DNA of 64,000 nt from Candidatus Eiseniibacteriota bacterium (GCA_965224245.1 OZ245046.1:4064001-4128000), one strand, 5' to 3'; counted from the stretch's first letter, positions 28,265-63,099 are shown. The notes: generated by a model from the sequence alone, not told the origin. Translations and numbers: made by a program.

Positions 28265-28460
28265 GTCGGCCTCCGGTCGGCGGGCGTGTCGGGCGATCGG
28301 GTCGTCATCATCAGCTACGCCGCCAGATGCCCGGAGTTCCCTACTTTCGTCGTGTATGCGCCTCCAGTGGTGCTTGAGGGCGTCTGGCCGCGCCGATTAC
28401 ACTGACGGGCCGACGAAGTCGTTTCGTGGTCCGTTGGATTTGCATGCCCTGGAGCGATTG

Positions 28461-40476: not shown

Positions 40477-40500
40477 GTTCGAGTCCGGACTGGGGAGCCA
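40477..40500 (+). repeat. tRNA-Asn-like 3' fragment (att-like site 1)
   Basis: GTTCGAGTCCGGACTGGGGAGCCA gives T-loop, 3' T-stem, acceptor strand, discriminator G and CCA. No 5' tRNA half upstream. Confidence 0.75.
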
Positions 40501-40501
40501 G

Positions 40502-40570
40502 CCTCCTTCGCTGAAGCTACGGAGGATGGCTCGGGTGATGGGTCCCGCCGTAGCCTTCGGCGAGGGCGGT
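40502..40570. repeat. REP-like inverted pair
   Basis: CCTTCGCTGAAGCTACGGAGG faces CCCGCCGTAGCCTTCGGCGAGG. A related unit lies at 40750-40790. Confidence 0.55.
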
Positions 40571-42772
40571 CCGAGTAGCCAAACTCCAATCAGACGAATA
40601 TCCGGGCGCCTCTCCCTCTGGTCGCGTCGGGCCCTTGCTGCCCGTACAATCGGCCCGGTTTTATCGACGTGGTGTTCACGGCAGGCACCCGTCTCGGCCC
40701 GTATGAAGTCACCGCGCAGCTCGACGCAGGGCACAGTCTCCGCTGAACGTGGCCTACGGCCACCGTTACGGCGGGTCCGCCGTAGCCACGAAAGGACCTG
40801 GCGATGATCGGAAGAACGCTGGGGCCGTATGAGGTCCTTTCCAAGCTTGGCGCAGGCGGCATGGGCGAGGTCTATCGAGCCAAGGACACCAAACTCGGGC
40901 GCGATGTCGCGCTCAAGATCCTGCCTGACGCGTTCGCCCAGGACGCGGATCGACTCGCGCGGTTCAGGCGGGAAGCGCAGGTCCTTGCGGCGCTGAACCA
41001 CCCGAACATTGCCCACATACACGGCCTCGAAGACAGCGGCGGCACGCACGCCCTCGTCATGGAACTGGTCGAGGGTGCGACCCTGGCAGACCGCATCGCA
41101 CAGGGCCCCATTCCCGTCGGTGAAGCCCTGCCGATCGCGAAGCAGATCGCCGAAGCGTTGGAGGCCGCGCACGAGCAGGGCATCATTCATCGCGATCTCA
41201 AGCCGGCCAATATCAAGCTCCGCGACGACGGCACGGTGAAGGTCCTGGACTTCGGTTTGGCCAAGGCACTGGAGTCGCCGGGGACGATGGCGTCAACGAA
41301 CGCGTCGATGTCGCCGACTATCACGTTGCCGGCCATGACCGAGATGGGCATGATCCTCGGCACGGCCGCTTACATGTCGCCCGAGCAGGCCGTCGGCAAA
41401 CCCGCGGACAAGCGCAGCGACCTGTGGTCGTTTGGCGTCGTCCTCCTGGAAATGCTGACCGGCCGCCGGGTCTTCGAGGGCGAGACGGTGTCCCACGTCC
41501 TCGCCTCGGTGTTGAAGGACACGCCGGACTGGACCAGGCTGCCGGCCGACACCCCCGCGGCGATCCGCAGGGTCCTCCGGCGCTGCCTGGAGCGGGATCG
41601 CCGCAGGCGGCTCGCGGACGCCGCCGATGCGCGTCTCGACATCGAAGACGCGCTGGCACCAAACCGTGACGAGCGCGCGTCCCCGCCGGGCACCGCGCCG
41701 GCGCGGCTTCGAACCTTCGCATGGCCCCTGGCGTTCACGGCGGCTGCGGTACTTGCGGTGACCGGCTACCTTCGAGTGGACGGCACCGGGGCAGGCGACG
41801 CTGAGTCGACCTTCCCGATTCAGTTCGGCGTGAGCATCCCCGACGTCGACGTGCGCAGTGCCGTCCCGTCTCCCGACGGACGTATGCTCGCGATCGGAGG
41901 GGTCCGATCTGGCGGGCAGCGGGGTCTCTGGATTCGGCGGCTCGACGACCCAACGGCGAAGGAAGTGCCGAACCTCGACGGGTTCACGGGCTCCGTCGCG
42001 TGGTCTCCGGACGGAACCGAGGTCGCCGCAAGCACCGAACGTGGCGTGGTCGCCATCCGACTCGAGACCGGTATCGTGCGTTCGCTGACGTCCGACGCGA
42101 CCTTTGCTCCCGGATCGTGGGGAGCCGGTGGTTCCATTCTGGCGACGGCGACCTGGGGGCGCGCGCTCGACGTGACGACCGGCGAAATGCTCACCACCGT
42201 GCCGGGTCTGGGTGCTAGGTCCTCCTTCCTTCCTGATGGCCGCCAGTTTCTGTTCAACGGCCCGGGGAAGGCCGCAGTCGGCGGTCCCAAGGGCGTCTAC
42301 CTTGGCTCGGTCGATTCGCCAGGTGAAGCGCGCCTGGTGCTGCCGTTTCACGCGATCGCCCGGTTCTCGGACGGGTATCTGCTGTTCGTCCGCGACGGCA
42401 CGCTCTTCGCCCAGCCGTTCGACCCGGAGCGTGCGGAAGTAGACGGACAGCCGGCGCCGATCGTTGACGGTGTGACGTTCTTTCAGCCGACTGGCTCGGC
42501 GACCTTCGATGTTCGTGGTAGCACGCTCACCTACGAGACGCCTCCTCCCGCGGACGCTCCAGTGTGGGTCGATCGCACAGGGGCTGAAATCGGCGTCCTC
42601 GGCGCGCCCGGAATCTACTACCAACACCCCGTCATCTCTCCCGACGGCCGCCGCGTCGTGACCTATACAGTGGACCGTCGCCAGGGGACGGGCGATTTGT
42701 GGCTGTACGACGTCGCGCGTGAGAGCACCACCCGGCTGACCAACGACGAGAACTCCGAAGGAAGCGTTCGGT

Positions 42773-44125
42773 GGATCCGTCCCGAGTCCTGTGGAAAAAC
42801 GAAAATGGCGTAACCTCCTGGTTGCCAAACCAGACCGCCCACCGGGCGAGGAGGAAACGCCATGGCTCAGTCTACCACCGCTCCGTCCCAACTTCCCGTC
42901 CGTCACGTCGTTCGTGAGCTTCTCCAGCAGCGGATCGCACAGGTCGTCGAGGTCGTGATCGAGGAGGAGCTGTCGGAGCTTCTCGGGTCTTCTCGATACC
43001 AGCGGACCGATGAGCGTCGAGGCTATCGGAACGGGCGAACGTCGCGAACGATCACGACGGAGTCCGGTCCGATGGAGATCTCGGTTCCCAGGGCTCGCGT
43101 CCGCGACGAGTCGGGGAACACCACCGAGTTCACGAGCGAGATCCTGCCCCGCTACGCCCGTCGTACCCGCCGGGTCGACGACGCCATCCTCGGGGTGTAT
43201 CTCGCCGGCGCGAACAGTCGACGTATCCGCAAGGCGCTTCTGCCGCTTCTTGGCGAAGCGAACCTCTCGAAGAGCGCCGTTTCTCGGGTCGTATCTCGAC
43301 TCAAGGCGCTGTTCCAGAGCTGGAGCGAGCGGGACCTGAGCGAGGAGACCTATCCGATCGTCATGCTCGATGCGATCCACCTGAAGGTGCGGCTGGCTCG
43401 CCGGGTGGTGAGCGTGCCGGTCCTGGTGGTGATGGGCGTCGATGAGGCCGGAAACAAGCGCCTGGTGGCGCTTCGACTCGCCGCCAGCGAGGCGGCGACG
43501 AACTGGGGCGCGGTGATCGAGGACCTTGGGGCTCGCGGACTCCCGAGTCCTGAGCTGATCATCAGCGACGGTCACAAAGGACTGCTTCGCGCGGTTGCGC
43601 TCTGGCCCGAAGCTGGCGTTCAGCGGTGCACGGTTCACAAGCGTGCGAATCTCGAGGCGTGCTGTCCGGTCCATGCCCGGCCTGAGCTCGCCCGCGACTA
43701 CCACGCGATCGTCATGGCCACCTCGGCCATGGACGCACGAGGGGCGTACGACGCGTTCCTGGGTAAGTGGCGGACGCTCTGTCCGGCCGTCGCGAGAAGT
43801 CTCGAGGAGGTGGGGCATCAGCTCCTCACGTTCTACGAGTTCCCCAAGCCGATGTGGAAGTCGCTGCGATCGACCAACTCGATCGAGAATCTGAACCGAG
43901 AGTTCCGCCGGCGGACCAAGACCCAAGCGTCGTTCTCGACCGAAGAGGCGGCGCTGACGTTGCTCTACGGTCTCGTTGCGTTCGGTCAGATCAAGATGCG
44001 CAAGATCAACGGACACCAGCACGTGGCCACGATCTCGGCTCGGAGGTGCCGAGACGCCGCGTAACGCGCTACTATCACGCAATCAGGAGGGCGCTACGCT
44101 TTTCCACAACAATCGGGACGCATCC
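42773..44125 (+). mobile_element. IS256 family insertion sequence, 1353 bp
   Basis: TIRs GGATCCGTCCCGAGTCCTGTGGAAAA and GGATGCGTCCCGATTGTTGTGGAAAA. 8-bp TSD CGTTCGGT at 42765-42772 and 44126-44133. Confidence 0.95.
42862..44064 (+). CDS. IS256 family transposase
   Basis: GYRNG, VPRAR, MLDAI, ISDGHKGL, QRCTVH, RSTNSIENLNREFRRRTK. Confidence 0.95.
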   Translation: MAQSTTAPSQLPVRHVVRELLQQRIAQVVEVVIEEELSELLGSSRYQRTDERRGYRNGRTSRTITTESGPMEISVPRARVRDESGNTTEFTSEILPRYARRTRRVDDAILGVYLAGANSRRIRKALLPLLGEANLSKSAVSRVVSRLKALFQSWSERDLSEETYPIVMLDAIHLKVRLARRVVSVPVLVVMGVDEAGNKRLVALRLAASEAATNWGAVIEDLGARGLPSPELIISDGHKGLLRAVALWPEAGVQRCTVHKRANLEACCPVHARPELARDYHAIVMATSAMDARGAYDAFLGKWRTLCPAVARSLEEVGHQLLTFYEFPKPMWKSLRSTNSIENLNREFRRRTKTQASFSTEEAALTLLYGLVAFGQIKMRKINGHQHVATISARRCRDAA

Positions 44126-45158
44126 CGTTCGGTGGTGCCCCGACGGAAAGTCGATCGTCTACGGGTGGGATCGCGACGGTGCGCCCGATGTCTACGCGCT
44201 CGACGTGGACGGCAACGCGTCGCCGCGCCTCGTGTTCGCATCCAAGCGTGTCGACTACCCGCTGGCGTGTCTCCCCGGGAATCGGGTGCTCGTGAAGACG
44301 ACATCCAGAGGAGCCGTGGACTACCACCTCGTCAACCTGGACGGCCGGGTCGAAGACGAGGCGGCGAACGTCTCCAGGCCCGATGGTGGAGTCGTCTCTC
44401 CGGACGGCCGCTGGCTGGCCTTCACGTCGCGAACCTCGGAGGACCTCGAGGTCTACGTCCAGCCGTTGGAGCGCCAGGGAAACGCTTTCCAGGTGTCGCA
44501 TGGCGGCGGGGAGGATCCGGTCTGGGCGCAGGACGGCCGCTCGATCTACTACCGCACGCGCCGGCGCATCTACCAGGCCGCGGTTCGTCCGGGTGCGGTG
44601 TTCTCGAGTGACCGGCCCGTTCTGGTGCTGTCGCTGGACCGCGACATTCAATCGTTCAGTCCCACGCCGGACGGGCAACGATTCCTCGTCCTGTTCGAGC
44701 CACCCGCCGGATTCCTCCCGGTGCAGGTCATCGTGAACTGGCAGGCCAAACTCAATCGTTGACCGCTCCTCATCGAGCGGCACGGGGCCACGGGCGAGAT
44801 TGGCGGCGATAACGGCGCGGAAAACATCTACGACAAGAAGTACTATCGCTCGGTCGAAGAGAGGACTCCCGTTCACGACACCATCGGCGGTGTCTTTACC
44901 GTGGACCAGTATCAGTATCCTCCCCGTTCTTGCTGGGTCCGTATCTCGTCTATTCAGTAGGCCTGGACTTCTTCGTACTGCCACTGCCCATCGGACCCGC
45001 AAACAGCGCCTTTGACTCCATTTTCATGATTGCGGCGATCGTATTCGCGGTCCTGGGGGCCATTGCCGTGGCTGTACGCCCGGCATCCACCGATGGCGTG
45101 TTGTCAGGCAACGAGGCGTTCGAACATCCGGATCCTTGATGCGTGACTCTCCGTGAGG

Positions 45159-45206
45159 AGCGTAAGGGGAGTCACGGTTCTAGTTAGATCCTGTACGGGG
45201 AGCCAA
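45159..45206 (+). repeat. att-like site 2
   Basis: AGCGTAAGGGGA...GTTCTAGTT...TCCTGTACGGGGAGCCAA, matching 51311-51355. Confidence 0.75.
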
Positions 45207-45276
45207 CGTCTGGCAGCGTCTACGGCGTAGTGTCCGAAGACTCGACCGCGTTGCCAAACACTAGCTTACGAGCCCC

Positions 45277-45752
45277 GTGCTAGACCCGTCGCATGTGCGA
45301 ATCATCCATCTCCGGCTCCTGCTGGCCACGTTCTCGACCTGGATCGGGCACCGGCAGGCATCGGTGATCGTGTACCTGATCGAAGAGAACCGCGTCCTCA
45401 AAGAGCAGCTTGAAGCCGACGGCCGGAAGCTCCGCTTCACCGACGACCAGCGTCGGGGACTGGCCGCCAAGGGCAAGCCCCTGGGCCGCAAGATACTCCA
45501 GCAGATCGCAACGATCGTGACACCATCCTCGCTTGGCACCGCCGGCTGATCGCGGCGAAGTGGACGTATCCGCGTCAGCGCGTCGACAGTCCCGGGGTCA
45601 TGAAGGAGATCCGCGAACTCATCGTTCGGATGGCAGAGGAGAACCCGAGCTGGGAATACGCTCGTATCCGGGTTGCCCTCAAACACCTGGACCATCCCGT
45701 GGCACGGAGCACGATCGGCAAGGTGTTGAGGGGAACCCGAGTCCGAGGGTGA
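45277..45752 (+). pseudogene. Frameshifted, truncated transposase (HTH plus integrase-core type), N-terminal part
   Basis: YLIEENRVLKEQL...TDDQRR.LA.K...LGRK.L..IATIVTP, then a frameshift to ILAWHRRLIAAKWTY...IVRMAEENPSW. Confidence 0.75.
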
Positions 45753-45754
45753 CC

Positions 45755-46290
45755 TGGGGTCCACCCCGCACCGCGCGAGACCGCCGTCCGCTCGTTGTCC
45801 ACGCGGATCGTGGCCGGCACGCCCTCCAGACGCCGCAGCGCCTCGTTGTGCACGTGATGCCACGAGAGCTGGTCCTTGCGCCGCGACCACACCCGAACCG
45901 CGTACCGGCTGTAGCTCAGCTGAAGCTCGAACGCGTACAGACGCTCGCGCCGGCCGCCGATCCACACGTCCCGCCACTCGCTCCAGTCCGCCTGCGCTTG
46001 CGCGCCCGGCGGGGTCTCCACGCGTCGGCGGGCGCGGCGCGCGGGCGTGGGGTAGTGCGTGCGAACGAAGCGCTGTACCGAGCGCAGGCTCCCCGTGTAG
46101 CGATGCTCCTCCTGGAGATGATCGTGAAGGGCGGCCACGTTGAGCGGACCGGTGCCACGGGACTCGATCCACCGCGTGATGGCCTCGGCGTGCGCGCTCG
46201 CCAGATGCGGCTGATCGGCCCGGCCGTCGTGGTCGCCCTGGCGGTGGCGTCGGAGATGGTAGCGAACCGTGCCCTCGGTCACGCTCTCCG
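45755..46290 (-). pseudogene. istA: IS21 family transposase fragment
   Basis: VTEGTVRYHL, ETPPGAQAQADW, LSYSR, GVPATIRVDNERTAV. Lacks the C-terminus and istB. Confidence 0.8.
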
Positions 46291-46420
46291 TTGCGCCGAA
46301 CCCACTAACGGCGTCGACCACGATCGAGATCACCCAAGCGCCCTTCTTGTCCCCCTGCACTTCTCTCGAAGCTCGGACGGTTTCGCTCGTCAACAACAAG
46401 CGTGAAGTCGGAGCATGAGG

Positions 46421-47740
46421 TCAGTCAAGAACCGTCAATCTCGTCGTGCCTCGGCGATCCGGCGACCAGTACTTGACGAAGTACACGCCAGGAAGCACGC
46501 GGCGACCGTGGTCATCGAGTCGGTCCCAAGCGATCTCTGTATGCCGTCGGTTTCGGTGGTCGAGCGTCCGCACGAGTCGCCCGGCGACGTCGTAGACTCC
46601 TACACGTCCCTCCGGTGTCGCCGTGTCACGGATCGAGATGATCACATGATGCGTGGACGGATTCGGTGCCGCGCGCAACTCGACTCGGCTGGGACCAAGC
46701 CCTTGTGAAACCGAGAGGATCCCTTGAAGTGTCGCGACCGGTTCGACGGCAACGTAGGGACGCACGAAGACATAGTCAGTACGCGTCGTGGTCGGTTCGA
46801 AGACAGACCAACTGGAGTCAGGCGACTTGCCGAGAAGGCCGAGTCGACCCACCGACACCCCTTCGAAGTCGGGCGACTCTTCGGTGATGGTGCCATTCAG
46901 CGTGCGCGTGAGGGGGCCTGGCGGCACGACAAAGACCTCCTTGAAGTATCCGCTTGAGCCGGGAAACGTGACCACAGTGCCGTCGCTCGGGTCGTTCTCG
47001 TCTCTTGAGGCGGTAGTAGGCGGAACTCGACTCGGGCCGGTGAAGACCGCCGACTCGTAGTCACCCACTCCCTCGCGCCGGAGTGAGGCGTATCCAATTG
47101 AGGAGTAGAGTGGTGTCTCAACGAGCCCGTAGTAAACCACCGAGTAGTAGTAGTCATTGCCTCCCGGTACGATCTGCTGCCGGAACTCGATGATCTTGGG
47201 ACCGTTGAGAACCGACTGAGACTCGATCTCCAGCTCCATGAAGTCCGGACCGCGCCCCATCATGAGCACTCCATCGCTGACTTCCAGGGTCGTGCCTTCG
47301 TCCTGCAAGAGAACCGCCCACTTGCCATCCGTGTCCAGCGCGTCTCCTTCGAAGTCATCGAAGAAGTCGAAGATCGCATCGCCATCCATGCCGCTCGCGA
47401 AGTCCGGGTTGCCATAGAGGAGAAACAGCTCGATACTCGAACCTGGCGAGATCTGCGGTACCAACGTCCAAATGCGACTGGTCCCGGTTGGACTCCACGT
47501 TTCGATCCAATGCGGCAGGTCGTTCGCCTCATGGTCGATGAAGTGAATGTCCCTACCGTCGCTGGTCGCGCCACCGTAGTCGAACGTCGACGGCGTCAGA
47601 TCGACTGCCAGCGGATGGTTCATCAGCTCTACCCCGGTCGCGTCCAGTGCCACGTGCACCACCTGGTAGGTCTCGGCCGCATCTGCGGCAGATGATGAAA
47701 GCACGACCGCGATCGCCGCGATGTGCCTGACGGCGTGCAT
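46421..47740 (-). CDS. Secreted DUF2341-domain protein with FlgD/T9SS-like C-terminal domain
   Basis: DGRDIHF...LPHWIETW...IWTLVP...YGNP...FDFFDDF. C-terminal APNPS...YDVAGRLV...GVYFV. Confidence 0.82.
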   Translation of the reverse strand: MHAVRHIAAIAVVLSSSAADAAETYQVVHVALDATGVELMNHPLAVDLTPSTFDYGGATSDGRDIHFIDHEANDLPHWIETWSPTGTSRIWTLVPQISPGSSIELFLLYGNPDFASGMDGDAIFDFFDDFEGDALDTDGKWAVLLQDEGTTLEVSDGVLMMGRGPDFMELEIESQSVLNGPKIIEFRQQIVPGGNDYYYSVVYYGLVETPLYSSIGYASLRREGVGDYESAVFTGPSRVPPTTASRDENDPSDGTVVTFPGSSGYFKEVFVVPPGPLTRTLNGTITEESPDFEGVSVGRLGLLGKSPDSSWSVFEPTTTRTDYVFVRPYVAVEPVATLQGILSVSQGLGPSRVELRAAPNPSTHHVIISIRDTATPEGRVGVYDVAGRLVRTLDHRNRRHTEIAWDRLDDHGRRVLPGVYFVKYWSPDRRGTTRLTVLD

Positions 47741-47999
47741 TGTCTTCTCCTCTCCGTCGAGGGAGAGTGCTCTTTGGCTCCGGATGAGAGCACCTCCGAT
47801 TCTTGATGCAGATACGGAAACTGTCGTGCGGCTTCAGGCAACGATGCCTGGATAACACAACTGCAAAGGACTCGCACGTCTCCGAAGAGGATACCGTACC
47901 TGCACCGGCCACTCCTGCCCGGCGCGAAGTTCCCCGCGACACTCCGCCTGACGACCCCTCCGGATCAGGAAACGGGAGTGGTCACCGCGCTCGGCCCCA

Positions 48000-49640
48000 T
48001 CACCTCGAGGTTCCGCCTACCGCCCCTTTCGTCATTGTGGCGTCGTAGCGACCCGGGGCGAGAACACCCCCTGGATCGACGGCATGCTTGAGCCGCCCCA
48101 GCACCGCATCGTAATCCAGTTGACTTCGAGGAAGTTGCGTCATCGAGCGAACTCCCAAGCGGTGGCAGTAGAACCCAGCGGCCATGAGTGCGGTGTGCAT
48201 TCGATCGTGACAGTCGAGTGCCTTGGAATCCTCCTCGGTATCGTCGCGATCAAACACGATGGAGGGCAGGACGTAAACACACCTCTCCGAGGGGAAAGTC
48301 AGCGCGATATTGGGTTCAAAGCCAAACTCCATGCAGCATTGCTCGGCAATGTCGATCGCCTGGGTGATCGCGTCCGGATCAAAGGGAACCGCCGGGCACA
48401 GCCACAATAGACCGCATTGATCCCGTTCGGGGTCAGGCGCAGCTGGCACCGGGGTCCTTTTACGCCAGTAAACGCCGTTGGTGCTCTTGTGGGTGGGGTA
48501 GCCGAGGAAGACGGATTCATGCACCAGACTCGTCATCAGCGATCGAACGTCGATCCGAGCCCACCGTTTCAGGGGAGCGTGGAACAGCCCCAGCATGCGT
48601 GCTTTCAGGCGATCGAGTACGACCAGCGGGTCGACGCTCCCACGTAGGCCGTGTTTCAGCGCGGTGCGGTCGGCCTTGGCGTGGGCTGAGCTAGGAGAGT
48701 AGAGGCCTCCGACGCCGACCCATTGCGCCCCGCCGAACGGCAAGTGCAGTTGCTGGAGGTCAGCGGCCTGAAGTGGTTTCCTCCCTCCCGTTAGGCGCCA
48801 TGGAAACTGACCCTCAGACGCCGCGAGCTTGTAGTGGTTCCAGATAGCAAGACTATTCGGCGCGATGATCCCTTGCGCCATCAAGCGCTTCACACGATCA
48901 CAGGTCTGCCGCAATCCATCGGCGTGCCGGATAGCGAACAGGTATGCCTGAAAGTGAGACGGACGTTCGGCCAGCCAAATCGTCGCCTCTGTTACCACAC
49001 CAAGGTTCGATTGAGAGAACAGCCCGTCCAAGCTCGGACCGACACCCCATCGATGAAGGGCACGCGCGCGGGCTCCCTCGAGTCGTCCAAAGCCGGTGCG
49101 TAAGCACTCTCCAGTCGGCAAGACAACCTGAGCATCTGCGAAGTGCGAGAAGCGCTCACCAAGCGGACCTACGCCATCGCCGCGTTCAACGGCATTGCCT
49201 ATGAGACTCGCGTCGGGAGGACCTCCGATCATCGCCAGATACCGCTGAGAACCTCGCTCGCCCAAGAAGCTGGCTACCTGCTGAAACGTCACACCAGGCT
49301 GTACCGTGATGGTACCCATTGCGTCGTCGTAGTCCACAATCTGATCCATGCGGGACAGATCCAGAAGAACTGCGCCGGACTCGATGGGGACCTTGGCTCC
49401 GAGCCCCCAATTGCGCCCGCGGCTCGTCGGGTAGACAGCGATACTGTTCTGGGTGGCAATCCTCAGGCAAGCCTGTACCTGGCCCTTGTCCGAGGGGCGC
49501 AAGATTGCCCGGATGCTTTGCTCGGTCCGGAAGGTCGTTCGCTCAGATGGACCGATCGTCTCACGATCGATGATGACCTGCTCGTGACCAAGAACTCGCC
49601 GCCAACTGGAAATGGCGAACCGAAGCTCTCCGGAGTTCAT
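48000..49640 (-). CDS. FAD-binding oxidoreductase, VAO/p-cresol methylhydroxylase family
   Basis: SRGRNWGLG, VQPGVTF, GNAVERG.G, GPSLDGLFSQSNLGVVT, DPGGVLAPGRY. Confidence 0.85.
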   Translation of the reverse strand: MNSGELRFAISSWRRVLGHEQVIIDRETIGPSERTTFRTEQSIRAILRPSDKGQVQACLRIATQNSIAVYPTSRGRNWGLGAKVPIESGAVLLDLSRMDQIVDYDDAMGTITVQPGVTFQQVASFLGERGSQRYLAMIGGPPDASLIGNAVERGDGVGPLGERFSHFADAQVVLPTGECLRTGFGRLEGARARALHRWGVGPSLDGLFSQSNLGVVTEATIWLAERPSHFQAYLFAIRHADGLRQTCDRVKRLMAQGIIAPNSLAIWNHYKLAASEGQFPWRLTGGRKPLQAADLQQLHLPFGGAQWVGVGGLYSPSSAHAKADRTALKHGLRGSVDPLVVLDRLKARMLGLFHAPLKRWARIDVRSLMTSLVHESVFLGYPTHKSTNGVYWRKRTPVPAAPDPERDQCGLLWLCPAVPFDPDAITQAIDIAEQCCMEFGFEPNIALTFPSERCVYVLPSIVFDRDDTEEDSKALDCHDRMHTALMAAGFYCHRLGVRSMTQLPRSQLDYDAVLGRLKHAVDPGGVLAPGRYDATMTKGAVGGTSR

Positions 49641-49808
49641 GTCACCCTCAGCACTGTTCGTCACGACGGCATGTCGTCGATGTTGGCTGGTGACGGAATC
49701 GTGAACCACGTTGCTTCTGTCCTCTTTCAGGAGAACTTCCTGAGACCGTGTTCGACATCGTCCGCCGGCCTGGCAGCGTGAACCGTACCGGGTTCTCCGG
49801 AGAGCTGG

Positions 49809-51142
<1,334 letters not shown>

Positions 51143-51310
51143 GGAGGTATCCTCTCAAGGAATACACCCTCCGGCAAACCCGGCGTGGTTCACACCATTC
51201 TTTGCGAGAGCGACCCGCATGGCCGTTACGTGGGCTTCCTCGTCCGGGCACATCGCTACGCCACCAGACTACCAAGTTGCCTGATTCGAGTGGCTTGTTC
51301 CGTGGTTAGC

Positions 51311-51355
51311 AGCGTAAGGGGATGAGTTCTAGTTGCGTCCTGTACGGGGAGCCAA
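51311..51355 (+). repeat. att-like site 3
   Basis: AGCGTAAGGGGATGAGTTCTAGTTGCGTCCTGTACGGGGAGCCAA. Confidence 0.75.
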
Positions 51356-51372
51356 ACCTTTCTAACAGATTG

Positions 51373-51396
51373 CCTCGCGACTACTTCGGTTGCGAG
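51373..51396 (+). terminator. Intrinsic terminator following att-like site 3
   Basis: CCTCGCGAC...GTTGCGAGG hairpin followed by TTTTTGTTT. Confidence 0.65.
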
Positions 51397-51569
51397 GTTT
51401 TTGTTTGCGCTGGATTGTTGGCCCGGCGATGCGTAGGCTGGTTTCATCGCCGCGCGGAACCCCAAACCATGTCTAACCGAATCCTCAATACGATCGCACT
51501 TGCACTCCTAGGGTGCTTGCTGAGCGGGAACCGGCGCCGTCCGAAACGTCCCACGCGAGGACCGCTGTG

Positions 51570-53336
51570 ATGAACTCCACGCCCTCCCCGGCCCGGCCCC
51601 TCCGCAGCGCCCGCTTCGCGGCGCTGCTCATCGCCCTCCTCGGCGTGATTCTCTCTCTGCCGACCCTCGACATGGGGCTGGCGATCGACGACTACCACCA
51701 TCGCGCGGCAATCACGGTGGGACGAACGGACGGCATCGCGAGCGAGGGCACCGTCACGGACCTGTTCTCCTTTGCCGACGGCGACCTGCAGACATCCGCG
51801 CAGATGATCAAGGCCGGCCATGTTCCCTGGTGGGCCGATCCGCAGATGAAGGTGAGCTTCTTCCGACCCCTGGCCGCGGCGACCGTTTTATTGGACTACG
51901 CTCTATGGTCCGAGGACGCGCGCCTCATGCACTTGCAGAACATCGTCTGGTTCGGGTTCCTGTTGCTCGTGGTTGGGCGCTACTACCTGCGGGCTTTTCC
52001 CCGCGGGATGCAATGGTTCGCCCTCGCGGCTCTGCTCCTGTTCACCGTCGACGACGCCCACTTCGTTCCGGTCTACTGGATCGCCCAGCGCAACTCGCTG
52101 ATCGCCGGCACGCTCGGCGTCCTGGCCCTGCACGCCTACCACGTGAGTCGCTCGGACGGACGCCGCCCAGTCGGCGCATGGGTCCTGTACTGCGTAGCCC
52201 TGCTCGCGGGAGAGGCCGGCATCCTGGCTTTGGCGTACATCGTCTCCTACGCCATCTTCCTCGACCGGGCAAGCGTGAGGGTGCGCGCCGCAGCGCTCCT
52301 GCCGCTGGTTGCGGTGACCGTCGTCTGGCGCGTAGGCACGGGCTTGGCAGGCTACGGCGCACAAGGCGTGGACTTCTACATCGACCCGGGCCAGGAGCCC
52401 CTACGCTTCCTCGGCGCCGTCGCCTTCCGGCTGCCCGTGCTGATCGGTGGCGTGCTCACCCCGAACAACATCGACCAGACGATCCTGGGCCCACCCGGGA
52501 CGGGCCCCCGCTTCGTCGCCATTGGCCTGGCGTCGCTCCTGGGCCTCGGCACGCTGGCCTGGCCCGTGTTGCGCACCAAACCCCTGGCGCGCACGTTCGC
52601 CCTGGGGATGCTCCTGAGCCTCGTCCCCTGTTGCGCGACCACGCCCCACCGACGGATGCTGCTCTGGGCCTCATTTGGGGCGATGCCTCTCGTGGCTTTC
52701 ACGGCCCACTACTGGTTCCGGGCGACCCGTGCCCGCGGGGCCCTGGTCCTCATTGCCCGGGCGGGTGTGCTGGTGCTGCTAGTGTTCCACGCCGTGCTGG
52801 CGCCGATCGAGTTGCATGCGTCGAAAAAGGTTCGGATGGGGTTCCAGCCGTTGTACCTGGCTCCCCTCGACGATCCCACCCTGGAGGGTGCCACCGTCGT
52901 CGCCATCAACAATCCACTGGCCTTCTTCACCGCGCACACGATCGTCGTGCAGCGTGCCGAGAGGAAGCCGGTGCCCCGGTCGATCCGCGTGCTGTCGCCG
53001 AGTTTCGCCGCGCTGACGGTGGGGCGCACGGACGCCCAAACCTTGCGTATCGTCGCAGCGGGCGGCTGGACCGCCCACCTCTTCGACCGCCTGTGGGTGC
53101 GCGCCGACCATGAGTGGACTGTCGGGCACCGCATCGATTGCGGCGAGTCCGAGGTTGAGGTCGTGGCCCTCACCGATGACGGCCGCCCAGCGGCCATCAA
53201 GGTGCGCTTCGAAGCTGAGCTTGAGGACGCCTCCCTGCACTGGTACCGCTGGAACCGCACGGGTTTCGAGCCATGGACCCCTCCTGCCCCAGGCGAGACG
53301 GTCGAGCTTCCACCAGCGATCCCCGCGGGCAGCTAG
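51570..53336 (+). CDS. Multi-pass membrane protein, GT-C (protein mannosyltransferase-like) superfamily
   Basis: DD motif after TM1, FFRPL, HLQNIVW, V.WIAQRN, many TM segments. Confidence 0.6.
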   Translation: MNSTPSPARPLRSARFAALLIALLGVILSLPTLDMGLAIDDYHHRAAITVGRTDGIASEGTVTDLFSFADGDLQTSAQMIKAGHVPWWADPQMKVSFFRPLAAATVLLDYALWSEDARLMHLQNIVWFGFLLLVVGRYYLRAFPRGMQWFALAALLLFTVDDAHFVPVYWIAQRNSLIAGTLGVLALHAYHVSRSDGRRPVGAWVLYCVALLAGEAGILALAYIVSYAIFLDRASVRVRAAALLPLVAVTVVWRVGTGLAGYGAQGVDFYIDPGQEPLRFLGAVAFRLPVLIGGVLTPNNIDQTILGPPGTGPRFVAIGLASLLGLGTLAWPVLRTKPLARTFALGMLLSLVPCCATTPHRRMLLWASFGAMPLVAFTAHYWFRATRARGALVLIARAGVLVLLVFHAVLAPIELHASKKVRMGFQPLYLAPLDDPTLEGATVVAINNPLAFFTAHTIVVQRAERKPVPRSIRVLSPSFAALTVGRTDAQTLRIVAAGGWTAHLFDRLWVRADHEWTVGHRIDCGESEVEVVALTDDGRPAAIKVRFEAELEDASLHWYRWNRTGFEPWTPPAPGETVELPPAIPAGS

Positions 53337-53464
53337 CCGCCGGTTTACGAACTCTATTGGTGGCAGGAGACTACCAGTGGCCGCCCAGGCAACCAGCTGG
53401 TTCCAGGTGGCGACTGCCCGTGTCTCAGATGCGGTCAAGAGTAGAGTCTGAGCGCAATTGGGGC

Positions 53465-53579
53465 GAGATGTAGCCAACGCGGGGAGCCAGATCATTTCAC
53501 CGGAAATTAGAATCAGCAGGCGAGAAGTGCGGCAACGAACGTTCGCGCTGTTCGAGAAATGTCGCAACCGGGGAGCCAG
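53465..53579 (+). repeat. att-like sites 4 and 5, 89 bp apart
   Basis: GAGATGTAGCCAACGCGGGGAGCCAG and GAAATGTCGCAACCGGGGAGCCAG. Confidence 0.6.
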
Positions 53580-54086
53580 TTTTTGGTGTCGCAATGCCCC
53601 GCAATCGATTAGGTTGTGGGGTTTTAGTTTGCACTGGAGTGTCCGCCCGATCGTGCCGTAGGCTGGTTTCGTCGCAAGACGCGGACCTGAACCATGCGTA
53701 GCGGAATCTTCAAAACGATAGCAGTGGCACTCCTTGGCCTGGGTTTGATCTCCGCGCCAAGTCGCGCTCAGCGTCTTGTCGTGGAGCTGGCGGGTGGCCT
53801 GGTCAATGATCCAGTTCATAACCGAGTCATCGGTGTGGACCCGGTGAAGACGGGTTTATACGATGTGCCGCACAGACTCGACGATGGCTGGCCGGTCGCG
53901 GCTGCGGAGGATCTGGGGTTGGACCGGAGGCCCTTGGCGAAGCTCACCAAAATGCTCCAGAGCGGGGAAGAGTTTCCGAACGTGCAGGGTCTTTTGATTG
54001 TTGAGGACGGTTACCTCGTTTACGAGCAGTACTTCGAGGGGGAGGATCGTCGCTACGGTAAGGACGGAGTGCGACATCCGGTCAAG

Positions 54087-55335
54087 TGGAGTTGACCCGG
54101 TTTCGTGGACACCAAGCCCTTACAATGGGGCGAGGAGGTCCCGATGCCAAGATCCCGTCGATCGTACCCGCCTGAGTTCCGCCGCCAGCTGATCGAGCTG
54201 GTCCGTGCCGGACGAACCCCCGAGTCTCTCGCCCGTGAGTTCGAACCGTCGGCCGGGGCGATCCGGAACTGGGTCAGACAGGCCGATCTCGATGAAGGCC
54301 GCCGGGAGGACGGTGTGACCAGCGAGGAGCGAGAGGAACTCACCCGCCTGCGCCGTGAGAACCGGCAGCTTCGTGAAGAGCGGGAGATTCTAAAAAAAGC
54401 CGCGGCCTGGTTCGCTCGGGAGACCGAGTCAACGCCCCCGAAGCGTTCGCGTTCGTGAAGGCGAATCGGGCCGACCACGCGGTGCGCACGATGTGCCGAG
54501 TGCTGGGCGTCTCCACCAGCGGGTACTACGCGTGGCTTGATCGTCCCCTCAGCAACCGGGCACGGGAGGATGCGGTCTTGCTGGAGATGATCGAGGAGTT
54601 CCACACGCGATCGGATGGGACCTATGGCGTTCCCCGCATCCACCAGGATCTGATCGATGAGGACATCTTCGTGGGAAAGAAGCGGGTTGGGCGCTTGATG
54701 CGCCTCAAGCAGCTCCAGGGCGTTCATCGACGGGCTCGGAGACGGACCACGATCCGTGGCGATGAACCCCCGTCTCAGGATCTGGTGAACCGGCGCTTCG
54801 AAGCCGACGGACCCGATCAGCTCTGGGTGGCGGACATCACCTACGTGCCGACCTGGGTGGGCTTTCTGTTCCTGGCCGTGGTGCTCGACGCGTGGAGTCG
54901 GCGCGTGGTGGGCTGGGCCATGGCCTCGCACCTGCGATCGGAGCTGGTTCTCGAGGCCCTGGAGATGGCCCTTCATCGCCGCCGTCCCGAGAACGTGATC
55001 CATCACTCCGACCAGGGGTGTCAGTACACGTCCTACGCCTTCGGAAAGCGTTGTCGGCAAGCCGGCGTGCGCCCCTCGATGGGATCGGTGGGCGACTGCT
55101 ACGACAACGCTATGTGCGAGAGCTTCTTCGCCACACTGGAGTGCGAGCTCATCGAGCGCCGCACCTTCCGGAACCGGACCGATGCGAGGCGAGAGCTGTT
55201 CCAGTTCATCGAGGGGTGGTACAACCCTCATCGTCGTCACTCCGCCTTGGGGTATCGTTCACCCATGGCGTTCGAGGCGGCTCAGCTCGAGCCGATCCTC
55301 ACATGAAACCTGTCCACCGAAGCGGGGCAACTCCA
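54087..55335 (+). mobile_element. IS3 family insertion sequence, 1249 bp
   Basis: TIRs TGGAGTTGACCCGGTTTCGTGGACA and TGGAGTTGCCCCGCTTCGGTGGACA. 4-bp TSD CAAG. AAAAAAAG slippery site at 54392-54399. Confidence 0.95.
54144..55306 (+). CDS. IS3 transposase OrfAB (-1 programmed frameshift)
   Basis: orfA 54144-54458 (YPPEFR...EILKKAAAWF). orfB contains WVADITY, HSDQGCQY, DNAMCESFF. Confidence 0.92.
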
Positions 55336-55538
55336 CAAGATGGTGTTCGATCGTGACACACTCCACGATCTTCGCTCGGTCACCAAGAGCGTTACTTCGG
55401 CGCTCGTAGGCATCGCATTCGCTGATGACGGCTTACAATCCCTCGATACACCGATCTGCGATGTCTTGCCTCCCCGAGCTGATCTGTGCACCGAACGAGA
55501 TAAGACCATCACGCTTCGCCACGCGTTGACCATGACGC

Positions 55539-56147
55539 CAATCTTGATCAGCCGCAACACGTGCCGATCCACGATGCGACGCGACACCGACTTCATCAGC
55601 TCGGCGTGCGGGATCGTATCGAAGTACCCGGACAGGTCCGCGTCGACCACCTCCCAGTGCCGCGACGTCAACAGCGTGTGGACGTGGCGAACCGCGTCCA
55701 GCGCGCTCTTCTCCGGACGGTAGGCGTACTGCTCGGGTGGGAGGTCGGCCTCGAAGATCGGTGCCAGCACCAGCGTCGCGGCCGTCATCACCACCCGGTC
55801 TCGGATCGTCGGGATCCCGAGCGGGCGCGTTCGCCCCGGCTGGCCCGGCTTGGGGATGTGGACCCGCCGGACCGCCTCGGACGGTAACGCTTCGTTCGAA
55901 GCTCCTCCGTCAGTTCGTCCAACCACCGATCGCGACCGAACGTCTCGATGTCCTCGAACGACTGCCCGTCGACGCCTTCCGCTCCACCGTTGTGACGGCA
56001 GAGCCGATACGCGTACGCGAGCACGTCCGAGCGATACACCTTGTCGTACAGCGTGTAGAACCGGTAGTCGGGCGATCCCTTCGCTTTGGCATGCAACGTC
56101 GCCTGTAGCTTCCCAACCGTTTCCGGAGGTCTCAGGCTCACGGCCAC
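55539..56147 (-). pseudogene. ltrA: Group II intron reverse transcriptase/maturase, frameshifted and truncated
   Basis: RFYTLYDKV, GVDG, a frameshift near 55878, then IPKPG..RPLGIPTIRDRV, YAYRP, VDADLSGYFDTIPH, LRLIK. Confidence 0.88.
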
Positions 56148-56644
56148 TCTCCTGGCTGTCGCTACGTCCTACGTTGACCTCGACCCAAGGCCCCTTCGCT
56201 CCACCGGCATTACCCGGCTTCATCACTACTACGGGCCTCTCCGCCACCCCATACGGCCCGGCCTGTCCCTCGCGGGAGTCCGGTTGAGGTCACGCCCTCA
56301 CCGATGGGGCTTCCCGTGTTGCGATCGACGTCCCTCTCGCATACATGCCGACGCCACTACCCCGGCGGGACCGAGCGGGTGCATCTATCGCTTCTTCCCT
56401 GCTCGACGGCGGCCTTCCCTGAAAAACTGACAGGTCGGCTCCCGCATCTCGGTCTTTCGAGGCCTGCTCAGCGTTCACTCACGTTTCGGCCTGCATGCTG
56501 CGCTGAGTCACCCGAAGTGACTCGTTCCATCGAGGCTTCGACGGACTCGTTACCTCCTCCGCCGCTCGACTGCTTCCGGCTGGAGCGATCCGTTGCCGGG
56601 CGGGGATTGCACCCGCTGGACGTCGCCGCCTTTTCACGGCGCAC
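55539..56644 (-). mobile_element. 3'-truncated group II intron
   Basis: 5' end GTGCGCCG at 56644. Domain-III-like CCCGTAGTAGTGATGAAGCCGGGTAATGCCGGTGGAGCGAAGGGG, followed by the RT ORF. No YADD or domain V/VI. Confidence 0.88.
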
Positions 56645-56728
56645 AGTTTCTCGACCACACGGGGTCCATAGGACTCGGGCGCAATCTGTCCCAGAAGTTC
56701 TGACGACGTACACTCCGACCCGGCACCA

Positions 56729-56833
56729 CCTGGCTCGGTCCCATGCGCTCCTGGCTCGGTCCCATGCGCTCCTGGCTCGGTCCCATGCGCTCCTGGCTCG
56801 GTCCCATGCGCTCCTGGCTCGGTCCCATGCGCT
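56729..56833. repeat. Perfect 21-bp tandem repeat, five copies (CCTGGCTCGGTCCCATGCGCT)
   Basis: Five contiguous identical units with no spacers. Confidence 0.95.
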
Positions 56834-56987
56834 CCGTCCTTCCCGTGCCGTCGAGCCTCCTCGAACTCTCGGTGCAGGGCGATGAGCTGCTACTATTCAT
56901 GTGACTGCAATATGGAGTCGCTCACTACCGCCTCCTAGCCAGTGAAGTCGTTGCCCAGAATACCTGGAGGTAAGCAATCACAACGTC

Positions 56988-59124: not shown

Positions 59125-59287
59125 CTGTCTTGAGTCTCGAGTGTCCCATCAAGACCTGGATCGTTCGCAGGTGAACGCCGGCCTCGAGGAGGTGGGTCCC
59201 GAAGCAGTGACGTAGCGTGTGGATCCCGCATCCCCGCTGGAGCTTGGCTCGTGCCAGAGCCTTCTTGTACGCGTGCTGTGCGGCGTA
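59125..59287 (-). pseudogene. Tyrosine recombinase/integrase C-terminal fragment
   Basis: Minus strand reads [52 protein letters not shown] (HxxR box and LxGH). Not present in the ORF track. Confidence 0.85.
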
Positions 59288-59322
59288 GCGGCGCGCGGGT
59301 ATGTTGTGTACTCGCGCGCCGC
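59288..59322 (-). terminator. Hairpin downstream of the FG-GAP gene
   Basis: GCGGCGCGCG...CGCGCGCCGC inverted repeat just after the stop codon. Confidence 0.5.
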
Positions 59323-59329
59323 GTGTTGA

Positions 59330-62300
59330 TCACGGAAGCCGAATGAGTTTCTCGGAGAGCACGCCCGCGTCGGTCGCAACGCGAGCGAAGTAGATGCCCG
59401 CCGGTGCCGGCAGTCCGTTCGTGACGCCGTCCCATGCCACGGTGTGCGTTCCCGCGCCCCGGGCGGACTCGTCGACGAGCGCGATCTCGCGGCCGGCGAC
59501 GTCCACGATGCTCACCCGGGCAGCGCCGGCGGCAGCGAGCGTGAATGAGATACTGGCGGTGGCGCGCATCGGGTTCGGTCGGATGGCGAGCTGCGGGCGC
59601 GACAGCACCGCTGCGCCGGCGGCGGAGAGCGCTGCGTCGCCGGTCTTGAACGCCACCATCGAAGACACTGCCGGTGCAAGGGCCATCCATCGCGTCCGCG
59701 GCTGAAAAACGTTGTCGTAGCTCAGACGAAGGCGCCATTGATAGGGCGTCTCACCGGTGAGACCGAGGACGTCGACGGCGGTAGGCATCACGCTGCCCGT
59801 CGCGCCGGGGGTGCCCGTGTCCACGAAGGGCTCCTCGTTGATCGGTGCCGTGTCGATGTCGCCGCCATCGGCGACCATCTGCCACTCGACCGATGCCATC
59901 GTGCGACCCATGGCCGAGCGCGCGTCGATGTGAAGCTGCATGCGATCGCCGTCGGGCGTGCGCGCGCCCAGCGGCAGCGGCGTGCCGTCGAAGCGTGTCT
60001 GACGCGGACGCATGCTGAGGCCACCTTCATTGCGGTAGTAGCTGCCGCCGAGGTAGAGGAACAGGCGCCCGGCATCGGTGCTCGTGCCGTCGTACTGTGG
60101 TGCGCCACTGAGCACATCCGAGAATCCGTCGCCGTTGAGATCGCCCACGGTGCAGACCGCGGTGCCCATCCGCGAACCGTCCTGCTCGGTGACCGCCTCG
60201 AACACGGCGGGGGTCGTCGGGCCCGACGGTGAACCCAGGTAGATGCGCGCCATGCCTTGCGACGGGAAGCTGCCGCTGTACTCGTTTGCACCGGCGATGA
60301 TGTCGCTGTATCCGTCTCCGTTGACGTCGCCCGCGGTATCGAGGGAGTAACCGAGGTTCTCGTTGTGCGACTCGCCCTCGATCTGCACGTCGGCGGCACT
60401 ACTGATGCCGGTGGGCGATCCGAAGTGGATCCAGATACGGCCGACCAGCACACCGGCGTCGCCGTTCATGTTGTCGGCGGCATAGATGAAGTCGTCGTAG
60501 CCGTCGCCGTTCACGTCACCCGCGGGCGCGCTGACGCTCATGCCGGTGCCCAGCTGATTCGACGTGAAGATGTGGTCGGGCGTGCTCGACGGCCCGCCGG
60601 CCGAGCCGTAGAAGACGAAGATGCCCCCCTCGGTCGAGTGCGAGTCGGAGTACTTCACGGCTCCCACGGCGATGTCCGCGAAGCCATCGCCGTTGAGATC
60701 GCCGACGCCCTGTACGTCGCCGAACCACGCGTCCTCGATGTTGGATTCGTAGCTCCAGTCCGGCGTCGCCGACGGCCCGGTGGGCGAACCGTAGTACAGA
60801 TAGGCGGCGCCCTCCTGAGTCTGACCGTTCGTGTACCACATGGCACCGACGAGCACGTCGGCATAGCCGTCGCAGTTCACGTCGCCCGCGCCGCTCACGC
60901 TTGCGCCGAACGCACTGGCGCTCTGTGTGCCCACGACCTGCCACGCCGTGGCCGGCGAGATGCCGGTGGGCGAGCCGTAGTGCACGGCAGCGCGGCCAAC
61001 GTCGGCGAGTCCGCCGTCGTAGTAGGGTGCGCCGAAGATGATGTCCTCGTAGCCGTCGCCGTTCACGTCGCCGGCGCCGTCGACGTCCGTTCCGACGAGC
61101 TCGGTGTCCTGGTTGCCGAGGATGGCCGTGGTGAACACGGGAGATCCGGATTCGTCGCCGTGGAAGACGCGCACGATGCCGCGGTATGGGATCCCCACCG
61201 AGTACACGTTCGTTCCCGCGACGAAGTCGCCGAGTCCGTCGCCGTTCACGTCACCGGCGTAGTTGAGTCGACTGCCGACGTTCTCGTTCTCGGCCGAGCC
61301 GTCGATGGTCCACTTCGGCGGGTACGGCACCGGCGCGTCGTGCTGGCCGTAGAAGGCGAACGCGAGGCCCTCGTCGTTCTCGCCGTTGGACTGATCCGGC
61401 GCGCTCACGATGATGTCGCCGAGACCGTCACCGTTGACGTCGCCGAGCGCCGAGACCGCGTTGCCCATGTGGGCGTCCGTTTCGCTTCCGGAGTAGAACC
61501 ATCGCAGAATGGTGTCGGGACCCGTTGGGCCACCGTAGTACATGTAGGCGCGTCCGGCGCCGGCGAGGCCGGTGTTGTAGTTGCGGGCACCGATGAGTAT
61601 CTCGGCATAGCCGTCGCCGTTGACATCTCCGGCCGTTCGGACCGCGTGCCCGAACAGCGCGTCGGCGCGTCCTCCCTCTTGCACCCACGCCGCCGCGGAT
61701 GAGATGCCGGACGCGGAGCCGAGATAGACCCACGCCGCGCCCTCGCCACTCTGTCCGTTGGAGTAGTTGCGACCACCGACGATGACGTCGCAGTAGCCGT
61801 CGCCGTTCACGTCGCCCGCGGTGCCGACCGCGCGCCCGAAGGCGGAAGCGCTCGGGCCGGACAGCGTCCGGTCGGGTGTGGCGGATGGGCCGGATGGCGA
61901 GCCGTGGAAGATGAATGCCGCGCCGCCGGAGCCCACGCCGGGGCCGCCGACGATGACGTCACCGAAGCCGTCACCGTTGACGTCGCCGGCACCGTACACG
62001 GCATGACCGACAGCGTCGTGGGCGACGTCGGTCTCGTAGGTCCAGTTCGGAGTGGGACTCAGTCCACCGAACGAGCCGAAGTAGACGAACGCCTTGCCTT
62101 CCTTCGTTTGACCGTTGGTGAGCTCGTAGGCACCGACGATCACGTCGTCGTACCCGTCGCCGTTTACGTCGCCGGCCCAGCCGACGGACTCGCCGAAGGA
62201 TGAGACCTCCACGTCGCTCTCGACCTGCCAGCTCGGCGTCGCCGCGGGTCCCGACGGGCCGCCGTGATAGACGAAGGCCGCGCCTTCGCCGACCTGGTCG

Positions 62301-62653: not shown

Positions 62654-63099
62654 CAACGTGCTATGTGGCCTGAGTGGGCTCACGGTGATCCTCCGAGTCA
62701 GAGTGGCCAAGTAAGTCGCGTCTGACGGAGAAACACCCTAAGAGGTGAGAACCGCACGGCTCAGAGTCCCAAGACTCGATCGAACCGAAACGGCGTGACT
62801 TGCGGAGGGTCGACGAAGCGTCCTGCCTGGGCTCCCGGTCGAGACGCAAAACGTAACCGGAGATTCTGAACGCCGGTTAGATTGACGGGCGTGGGTGGCC
62901 CCGGAAGCGACGCCAGCGGAACCGATTGCACGAGTTCGAGAAGCGTCCTGACCGAACCCCGCGTAGGACGCAAAACCGTAACCGGAGAGAAGACGGAAGC
63001 GTCCCGAGTGGGGAGCCGGTTCCGAACTCGCGCGATGCCCTGCGACCGGCTGAGTTCAGGGCGCTCTCGTCTTCGTGCATTCAGGGGACGACCAGCAAG

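Follow-up and report, generated by a model that had tools for sequence, protein, structure and literature searches.

A 64,000-base stretch from the genome of a Candidatus Eiseniibacteriota bacterium (the window; G000:C1:4064001-4128000) carries an array of short sites built around a 9-base core, GGGGAGCCA, that reproduces the 3' end of the tRNA-Asn gene of the same genome. The whole array spans positions 40492-63018 (22.5 kb) and contains six cores in a single orientation, which delimit successive core-to-core units of 4.7, 6.1, 2.1, 0.09 and 9.4 kb. These sites are probably attachment (att) scars left by phage-like integrative elements that targeted the tRNA-Asn 3' end, inserted serially and subsequently decayed. 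Three lines of evidence support this interpretation: the core constitutes the last nine bases of the tRNA, the same core parts tandem elements at the tRNA-Asn locus, and the classes of sequence flanking the core reassort among sites.

The analysis covered the window and the assembly to which it belongs, which comprises 6,936,481 bases (6.94 Mb) in 27 contigs, the window lying on contig C1. A word search of the window located GGGGAGCCA on the plus strand with starts at 40492, 45197, 51346, 53481 and 53570, and on the minus strand at 6997 and 52858. All five plus-strand sites fall between genes in a map combining open reading frames (ORFs), GC content at third codon positions (GC3) and Pfam matches, and a crude frame classifier agrees with this placement. 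The positions, strand and non-coding setting put forward in an earlier, sequence-only reading of this DNA were hence all reproduced. A sixth site, overlooked in that reading, bears a one-mismatch core, GGGGAGCCG, at 63010-63018.

Expectations for the window were derived from 100 dinucleotide shuffles, which yielded a mean of 0.71 copies of the 9-mer (sd 0.90, largest 4); none of them attained the seven copies observed. Over the whole genome the 9-mer occurs 68 times on both strands, so that about 0.13 copies would be expected in a 13.1-kb span, against the five seen there. No genome-wide excess is apparent, with 30 permuted 9-mers ranging from 22 to 710 copies. The crude classifier assigned 48 of the 68 genomic copies to coding-like frames and 20 to non-coding-like sequence. 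Eleven of these 20 form one family of sites: five members are in the window, the tRNA-Asn locus has three, and contigs C10, C11 and C23 contribute a single member apiece.

Analysis of the whole assembly with ARAGORN identified a sole tRNA-Asn(GTT) gene at C1:6096072-6096146, in agreement with Rfam (71.7 bits) and about 2 Mb away from the window array. This gene ends in ...CCCGGGGAGCCA, and its last nine bases, with the encoded CCA included, are identical to GGGGAGCCA. The proposal that the 9-mer fits the end of a tRNA-Asn was thus borne out exactly by the genome-wide tRNA scan and 3'-end comparison. At site 1, the leftmost of the array, the resemblance reaches further upstream, with a 10-base T-loop block, GTTCGAGTCC, located at -15 to -6 in the same register as in the real tRNA-Asn. 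With about 72 copies of this block genome-wide, its exact offset at site 1 is not attributable to chance. The five bases between GTTCGAGTCC and the core are nonetheless unlike those of tRNA-Asn, and the site receives no score from the tRNA model, so the earlier description of site 1 as a clean T-loop/acceptor fragment holds for the T-loop block and its register but not for the intervening bases.

The possibility that the sites represent partial tRNAs or members of a known RNA family was discarded after Rfam searches of the window (gathering level), of the 39.5-58.5 kb region (E <= 1), of six loci (E <= 0.01) and of ten 116-base site loci (E <= 10), in which only the real tRNA, an ALIL element and a group II intron D1-D4 piece surfaced. 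Two pieces of tRNA-Asn T-arm were also observed without the 9-mer: an exact 17-base piece on a metagenome contig (L035, positions 252-285), 120 bases past a core, and an inverted 14-base piece at C1:6150997 (minus strand), inside the tRNA-Asn island.

The tRNA-Asn gene heads a tandem array of phage-like elements, with the 9-mer repeated at the joints. The 9-mer and at least 210 bases of the sequence downstream of the tRNA (arm D1) recur in direct orientation at C1:6127071 and C1:6193295, which lie 31 and 97 kb downstream of tRNA-Asn, and at C23:5007 and C11:27229. Arm D1 opens with a hairpin, directly behind the real tRNA-Asn, and runs into paralogous genes for DUF5122/Rax2 beta-propellers with CARDB and type IX secretion system (T9SS) sorting domains. 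The first element after tRNA-Asn has two recombinase genes, one for a large serine enzyme (phrog_95, 414 bits; C1:6106698-6108383) with DUF2924 and one for a short Xer-like tyrosine enzyme (C1:6104908-6105504). It also codes for a Sak4-like protein, an ERCC4 nuclease and a Prim-Pol/D5 primase, as well as for ParB and for a terminase in split pieces.

Genome searches returned a total of eight matches for the short integrase and 12 for PF07508, and the short integrase and the serine recombinase are paired in six places, 2.4-6.2 kb apart, on C1 and on small contigs of lower GC content. The genome therefore carries a diverged family of such phage-like elements, and many of the small, lower-GC contigs seem to be pieces of it. 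A module consisting of a 235-amino acid (aa) ORF and a short (~200-290 aa) Xer-like recombinase is present in at least eight diverged copies with 70-90% identity, at C1:6103916-6108383 and on contigs C3, C10, C11, C18, C22 and C23.

The sequences adjoining the cores define two upstream classes (A and B) and two downstream classes (D1 and Dm), which are distributed over the six window sites as follows.

Site 1, 40477..40500, plus strand: T-loop-like block at 40477-40486, five differing bases and core at 40492-40500; 82 nt past the stop of an alpha/beta-hydrolase gene.
Site 2, 45132..45205, plus strand: B arm at 45132-45196 and core at 45197-45205, followed by 21 D1-like bases.
Site 3, 51256..51398, plus strand: B arm at 51256-51345, core at 51346-51354, and Dm arm with a terminator-like hairpin at 51372-51398.
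Site 4, 53481..53489, plus strand: core preceded by a unique upstream arm; an 80-base spacer comes next.
Site 5, 53570..53737, plus strand: core at 53570-53578, terminator-like hairpin at 53596-53622, and Dm arm homologous to 51385-51512.
Site 6, 62848..63018, plus strand: A arm with direct AAAAC(C)GTAACCGGAGA boxes at 62848 and 62972, a hairpin that takes in the 5' half of the core, and core GGGGAGCCG at 63010-63018.

To delineate these classes, we compared 80 bases on each side of the core at 12 sites (66 pairs), using a shuffled local-alignment null with a mean score of 7.7 and a 99th percentile of 12. Upstream class A encompasses 6127071, C23, C10 and window site 63010 (scores 27-47), with 6193295 matching C23 only, and class B comprises C11 and window sites 45197 and 51346 (scores 26-37). 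Downstream class D1 includes the tRNA, 6127071, 6193295, C23 and C11 (scores 38-78), window site 45197 being D1-like over its first 21 bases only (score 13), and class Dm is made up of window sites 51346 and 53570 (score 28). The pairings observed join D1 to the tRNA, to A and to B, Dm to B and to a unique upstream arm, and A to another downstream sequence. Upstream and downstream classes hence combine independently, and homology between copies breaks exactly at the 9-mer, as predicted by site-specific recombination within the core. Only two of the 66 pairs (C23/6127071 and C23/6193295) show homology running through the core on both sides, and these are tandem A+D1 joints outside the window; none of the pairs that include a window site do so.

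The same switch is seen in a 2.2-kb metagenome contig, where a B arm and core identical to site 3 over ~37 bases are joined to another downstream arm that again opens with a hairpin. Within the window, the two strongest terminator-like hairpins of the 40.3-54 kb region start 18 nt past the cores of sites 3 and 5. The A arms present two direct AAAACGTAAC-type boxes, 124 bases apart, and six of the eight instances of this motif in the genome are located in A arms; judging from sequence, this spacing resembles that of arm-type binding sites. A scan of genome contigs from other species with the A-arm pattern produced two matches (a haloarchaeon and a Bacteroidales metagenome-assembled genome), approximately the estimated chance number. 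An origin of the A arm as group II intron domains V/VI was rejected, since it obtained no Rfam support and only its distal ~135 bases resemble an intron fragment.

Two housekeeping genes, serA and HIT, are found a short way upstream of the left end of the array. From there to site 6, the intervals between cores hold cargo genes and several insertion sequence (IS) and intron remnants.

Unit a cargo, 40804..44762, plus strand: Ser/Thr kinase (Pkinase) gene with PD40 beta-propeller, split by an IS256 copy.
IS256-family copy, 42773-44126: inside the kinase/PD40 gene, with a 7-base target duplication.
IS remnant, 45221..46399, no strand assigned: cuts the D1-like arm of site 2.
Repeated module, 45221-45505: 11 diverged copies, 10 of them in C1:6.14-6.35 Mb and one on C3.
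IS21-family transposase fragment, 45575-46399, minus strand.
Unit b cargo, 46421-47740, minus strand (opposite to the sites): DUF2341 protein with a T9SS sorting tail.
Unit b cargo, 48000-49709, minus strand (opposite to the sites): FAD_binding_4 oxidase.
IS3-family copy, 49779..51192, minus strand: 1414 bases, with an ALIL frameshift pseudoknot at 50748-50864.
Unit c cargo, 51513..53336, plus strand: 607-aa protein with no Pfam, NCBIfam or PHROGs family.
IS3-B, 54087..55335, plus strand: second IS3-family copy, with a 4-base target duplication, within an ORF at 53694-54095.
Group II intron fragment, 55537..56663, minus strand: partial reverse transcriptase ORF and D1-D4 RNA domain at 56479-56618.
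Tyrosine recombinase gene fragment, 59126..59308, minus strand: box II region only, in a 73-codon open frame.
FG-GAP / FlgD_ig secreted protein gene, 59330..62710, minus strand.

The sequence-only reading had listed a kinase, a DUF2341 protein and an FAD oxidase as cargo, all confirmed by Pfam, and had given the correct spacing of 89 bases between sites 4 and 5. It had also assigned the unit c product to the GT-C type, for which Pfam and NCBIfam provided no match and the Atlas a weak lead only: the protein falls in hypothetical, Myxococcota-rich clusters, with PMT_2 on 11% of the members of one cluster, at rank 12. The IS256 copy, the IS21 fragment, the two IS3 copies and the group II intron fragment had been overlooked.

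Removal of the IS256 copy and seven further bases opens the kinase/PD40 frame to 865 codons, and four other near-identical copies of this IS are present in the genome. The IS3 copy at 49779-51192 has four other complete and identical copies in the genome. A 3-base target duplication is recognisable in only one of the five complete copies, which may hint at recombination between copies; a comparison of the IS3 flanks for traces of rearrangement found no reciprocal partners. Because the ALIL pseudoknot and the IS3 genes lie to the left of site 3, the core was first suspected to be an IS3 terminal inverted repeat, but the identical copies set the end of the IS at 51192, 153 bases before site 3. 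The group II intron fragment is 98.8% identical to C1:6165342-6166469, inside the tRNA-Asn island. Some 90-135 bases at its end resemble the distal part of the A arms, and it is followed by a 21-base tandem repeat of five to six copies (56708-56835). A PQQ-like T9SS protein is encoded between this repeat and the tyrosine recombinase fragment, and the same kind of FG-GAP/FlgD_ig gene that precedes the A arm of site 6 also precedes the A arm on contig C10.

The copies of the module at 45221-45505 are 77-92% identical and contain a 90-codon ORF of no known family; in seven of the 11 the match starts within six bases of one query position, and the module may be an IS21-type end or a miniature inverted-repeat transposable element. 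The small ORF family that follows site 2 was considered as a core-preceded family and dismissed, as none of nine paralogue upstream regions contains a core. Inside the IS21 fragment, 523 bases (45762-46284) are 100% identical to three other loci with dissimilar flanks, and two of these loci adjoin weak tyrosine-recombinase matches. Many large secreted proteins have C-terminal FlgD_ig or Por_Secre_tail domains (T9SS-type sorting signals), among them the products of 28245-31958, 46421-47740, 57031-59124 and 59330-62710 and of the island loci; they belong to the native portion of the window as well as to the cargo at the ends of elements.

The integrase-less character attributed to the cassettes in the sequence-only reading was upheld by searches for PF00589 and PF07508, which detected no recombinase in the 40.5-53.6 kb interval. 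A core bounds each side of units a, b and c and of the 89-base unit; these units carry IS transposases but no match to either family. The only PF00589 match in the window is the box II fragment, which sits among unrelated genes 5.5 kb past site 5. In the search for an integrase next to tRNA-Asn that had been suggested with the sequence-only reading, the first element there was seen to encode serine and tyrosine recombinases, the serine recombinase lying ~11 kb from the tRNA.

Logan contigs (four runs, one sample) cross every site unbroken and are uninformative on excision, given that rare variants drop from contigs; the joints listed in them have short sides (<46 letters) and include no core joined to a core. 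A DNA search of 30 distant relatives matched the kinase domain, the two genes that border the array on its left, and sequences of IS256, IS21, IS3 and the intron, and returned no match overlapping a core or a unit boundary among these relatives, which are too distant for strain comparison. The flanking 502-aa protein was found in nine of the 30 relatives at no more than 47% identity, and not in the one genome of the same family.

According to the interpretation outlined above, phage-like elements would have integrated serially by site-specific recombination inside the 9-base core, each with a downstream arm from which the tRNA could obtain a terminator and with an upstream arm imitating its T-stem side. 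The candidate recombinases are the large serine recombinase of the family and its short Xer-like tyrosine recombinase. Deletions and IS insertions would then have removed the genes for integration, replication and packaging, leaving cargo bounded by cores, and the array, 2 Mb from tRNA-Asn, would have arrived by rearrangement or arisen at a secondary site. The units resemble worn-down termini of larger phage-like elements and not cassettes captured as such. The recombinase fragment and the five IS and intron remnants of the window are consistent with decay, and downstream arms opening with a terminator-like hairpin fit elements that sit directly behind a tRNA gene. The identical IS3 copies and near-identical intron-fragment copies at both loci make a rearrangement that moved the array away from tRNA-Asn plausible, with integration at a secondary site being equally possible.

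Several observations weigh against the stacking and decay of tRNA-Asn-targeting elements. ARAGORN detected no tRNA gene in the window, so the array is not anchored at an intact target tRNA, and none of ten sites (the five perfect sites, the 63010 variant and four elsewhere) obtained a partial-tRNA score at E <= 10; its position is accordingly no canonical attB. The upstream arms of sites 4 and 5 have no homologues anywhere in the genome. No window unit was found elsewhere in the genome, so that movement as units is only putative, and the unit a kinase is one of a large set of paralogues of native appearance, so that it may not be an import. The five cores are perfect and their arms ~75-83% identical, and the sites may still be in use; the arms may, alternatively, have differed before integration. 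Regarding the recombinases, a core within 4 kb downstream (at most one mismatch, with a recognisable arm) accompanies one of the eight short integrases, and the attempt to tie this integrase to the cores was accordingly dropped. The serine recombinase near tRNA-Asn does not adjoin a core, and elsewhere in the element family neither of the two enzymes does so consistently. The serial accretion at one att site advanced in the sequence-only reading thus agrees with the tRNA-tail cores and the exact reassortment of arms, but not with an array located away from the tRNA gene.

Among the alternatives, the one that retains most weight, although we deem it unlikely, is a working cassette array in which small integrase-less units are excised, reshuffled and captured in trans by the recombinase of phage-like elements located elsewhere in the genome; the units would then be cis-mobilizable elements employed in the manner of integron cassettes. 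Perfect cores beside diverged arms, the reassortment of arm classes among the window locus, the tRNA-Asn locus and the small contigs, the intact terminator-like hairpins with which units c and d open, and the many copies of candidate recombinases would all suit such a system. It is countered by the lack of a recombinase beside the array and of a common promoter or attI-like anchor, by genes on both strands, by arms and cargo cut by IS insertions, by the failure of any unit to appear in a second genomic context and by the unique upstream arms of sites 4 and 5.

A slightly more doubtful extension of this idea is chromosomal gene shuffling on the tRNA-Asn tail, in which small modules of one or a few genes, with their own terminator and leader, would be traded in trans. 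We likewise assign a low probability to the traffic that it envisages among the tRNA-Asn locus, the window locus and some eight phage-like elements, by means of the recombinase of the latter. If true, this shuffling would amount to an integron-resembling cassette economy based on a tRNA tail and phage recombinases, diversifying secreted, T9SS-sorted proteins and surface proteins.

Local duplication or gene conversion of a module consisting of the tRNA tail and a terminator, operating without site-specific recombination, appears improbable. Sites 3 and 5 do have in common a downstream block of ~130 bases with 75% identity, and sites 2 and 3 an upstream block, as expected from such a process. 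Duplication of a single module, however, does not predict independent combinations of arms switching exactly at the 9-mer, and the same arms turn up at a distance of 2 Mb, on further contigs and, with different partners, on a metagenome contig. The homology at site 5 extends through the first ~15 codons of the ORF cut by IS3-B, and the short frame shared with this region stops in unit c after 33 codons. Units c and d do not represent paralogous genes, as the two proteins fail to align (E 0.039 over 44 residues) and the homology consists of the arm and ~15 codons.

Still less probable is that the sites are functional RNA ends, that is, processed tRNA-like minihelices, with an acceptor-like stem and a long hairpin of T-arm type ending in ...AGCCA, that would act, for instance, as processing or priming signals. 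In its favour, the five A-class arms can fold into a 13-pair hairpin taking in the 5' half of the core, in which 81% of cells pair against 33-48% for slid partners and two pairs changed on both sides. Yet only five sequences are involved, the covariation score was met by 19 of 500 shuffles, the B-class and unique arms lack a stable fold (z-scores -2.1 to +1.3), and no Rfam family matches. Among the window sites, the conserved hairpin is confined to the A-arm site at 63010. Finally, chance clustering of a GC-rich 9-mer, despite its unremarkable genome-wide count, is refuted by the shuffles, by the copies at the tRNA locus, by the concentration of five non-coding, same-strand copies in 13.1 kb and by the arm homologies common to the copies.

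The decayed stack of tRNA-Asn-targeting elements that we favour has counterparts in other bacteria. In a preprint on tycheposons (10.1101/2020.12.28.424599), these Prochlorococcus elements are described as combining a recombinase, a primase/helicase module and cargo and as integrating at tRNA genes, where later insertions push older ones inward, parted by a partial tRNA; the islands so formed contain scattered remnants, fragmented integrases and further partial tRNAs. The array described here agrees in having serial tRNA-targeted insertions parted by a tRNA copy, remnants and a broken integrase, a likeness of architecture. It differs in lineage, in its tRNA-Asn target and in a common core of only nine bases; in elements that combine two recombinases (a large serine and a short Xer-like enzyme) with pieces of a terminase and with cargo ending in T9SS sorting tails; and in a window array that lies off any tRNA gene and is heavily invaded by IS.

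Parallels can also be drawn with three other systems. The cis-mobilizable elements (CIMEs) of streptococcal integrative elements are att-flanked, lack recombination and transfer genes of their own, accrete in tandem and can be mobilized in trans. The window units are similarly att-flanked and devoid of recombination and transfer genes of their own, and their mobilization is conceivable; unlike CIMEs, they are smaller (down to 89 bases) and do not adjoin the target gene. In the asn-tRNA islands of enterobacteria, such as the Yersinia high-pathogenicity island (HPI) and ICEKp1, integration takes place at the tRNA-Asn 3' end and generates direct tail repeats of ~17 bases, with P4-type integrases encoded next to the tRNA. 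The target and the direct tRNA-tail repeats are the same here, but neither a P4-type integrase by the tRNA nor repeats of ~17 bases were observed.

Integrons, in turn, carry an IntI gene, an attI site and a promoter at the end of the array, and their mostly promoterless, one-way cassettes are bounded by attC sites, imperfect palindromes with conserved inverse cores and GTTRRRY core sequences. Like them, the window array presents ordered short units, some with a single gene, parted by a repeated site in one orientation. In contrast to integrons, no IntI adjoins it, the repeated site consists of a constant tRNA tail flanked by varied arms and not of an attC palindrome, genes lie on both strands, and at least two units have their own terminator-like hairpins. 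The integron-like capture platform envisaged in the sequence-only reading is not supported, in view of these same features and of the absence of an adjoining integrase or attI-like anchor. Overall, the array most likely matches the known route of island building by stacked tRNA-targeting elements.

For a high-GC lineage of which few genomes have been sampled, these results illustrate how stacked recombination scars allow a genomic island to be read: a 9-base tRNA tail divides 22.5 kb into units, and the arms of these units find matches in a phage-like family elsewhere in the genome. The core and the A, B, D1 and Dm arms provide a concrete set of substrates for finding the recombinase that targets tRNA-Asn. 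If cargo-only remnants such as these stay mobilizable, the accretion and mobilization model would reach down to very small, cassette-sized units.

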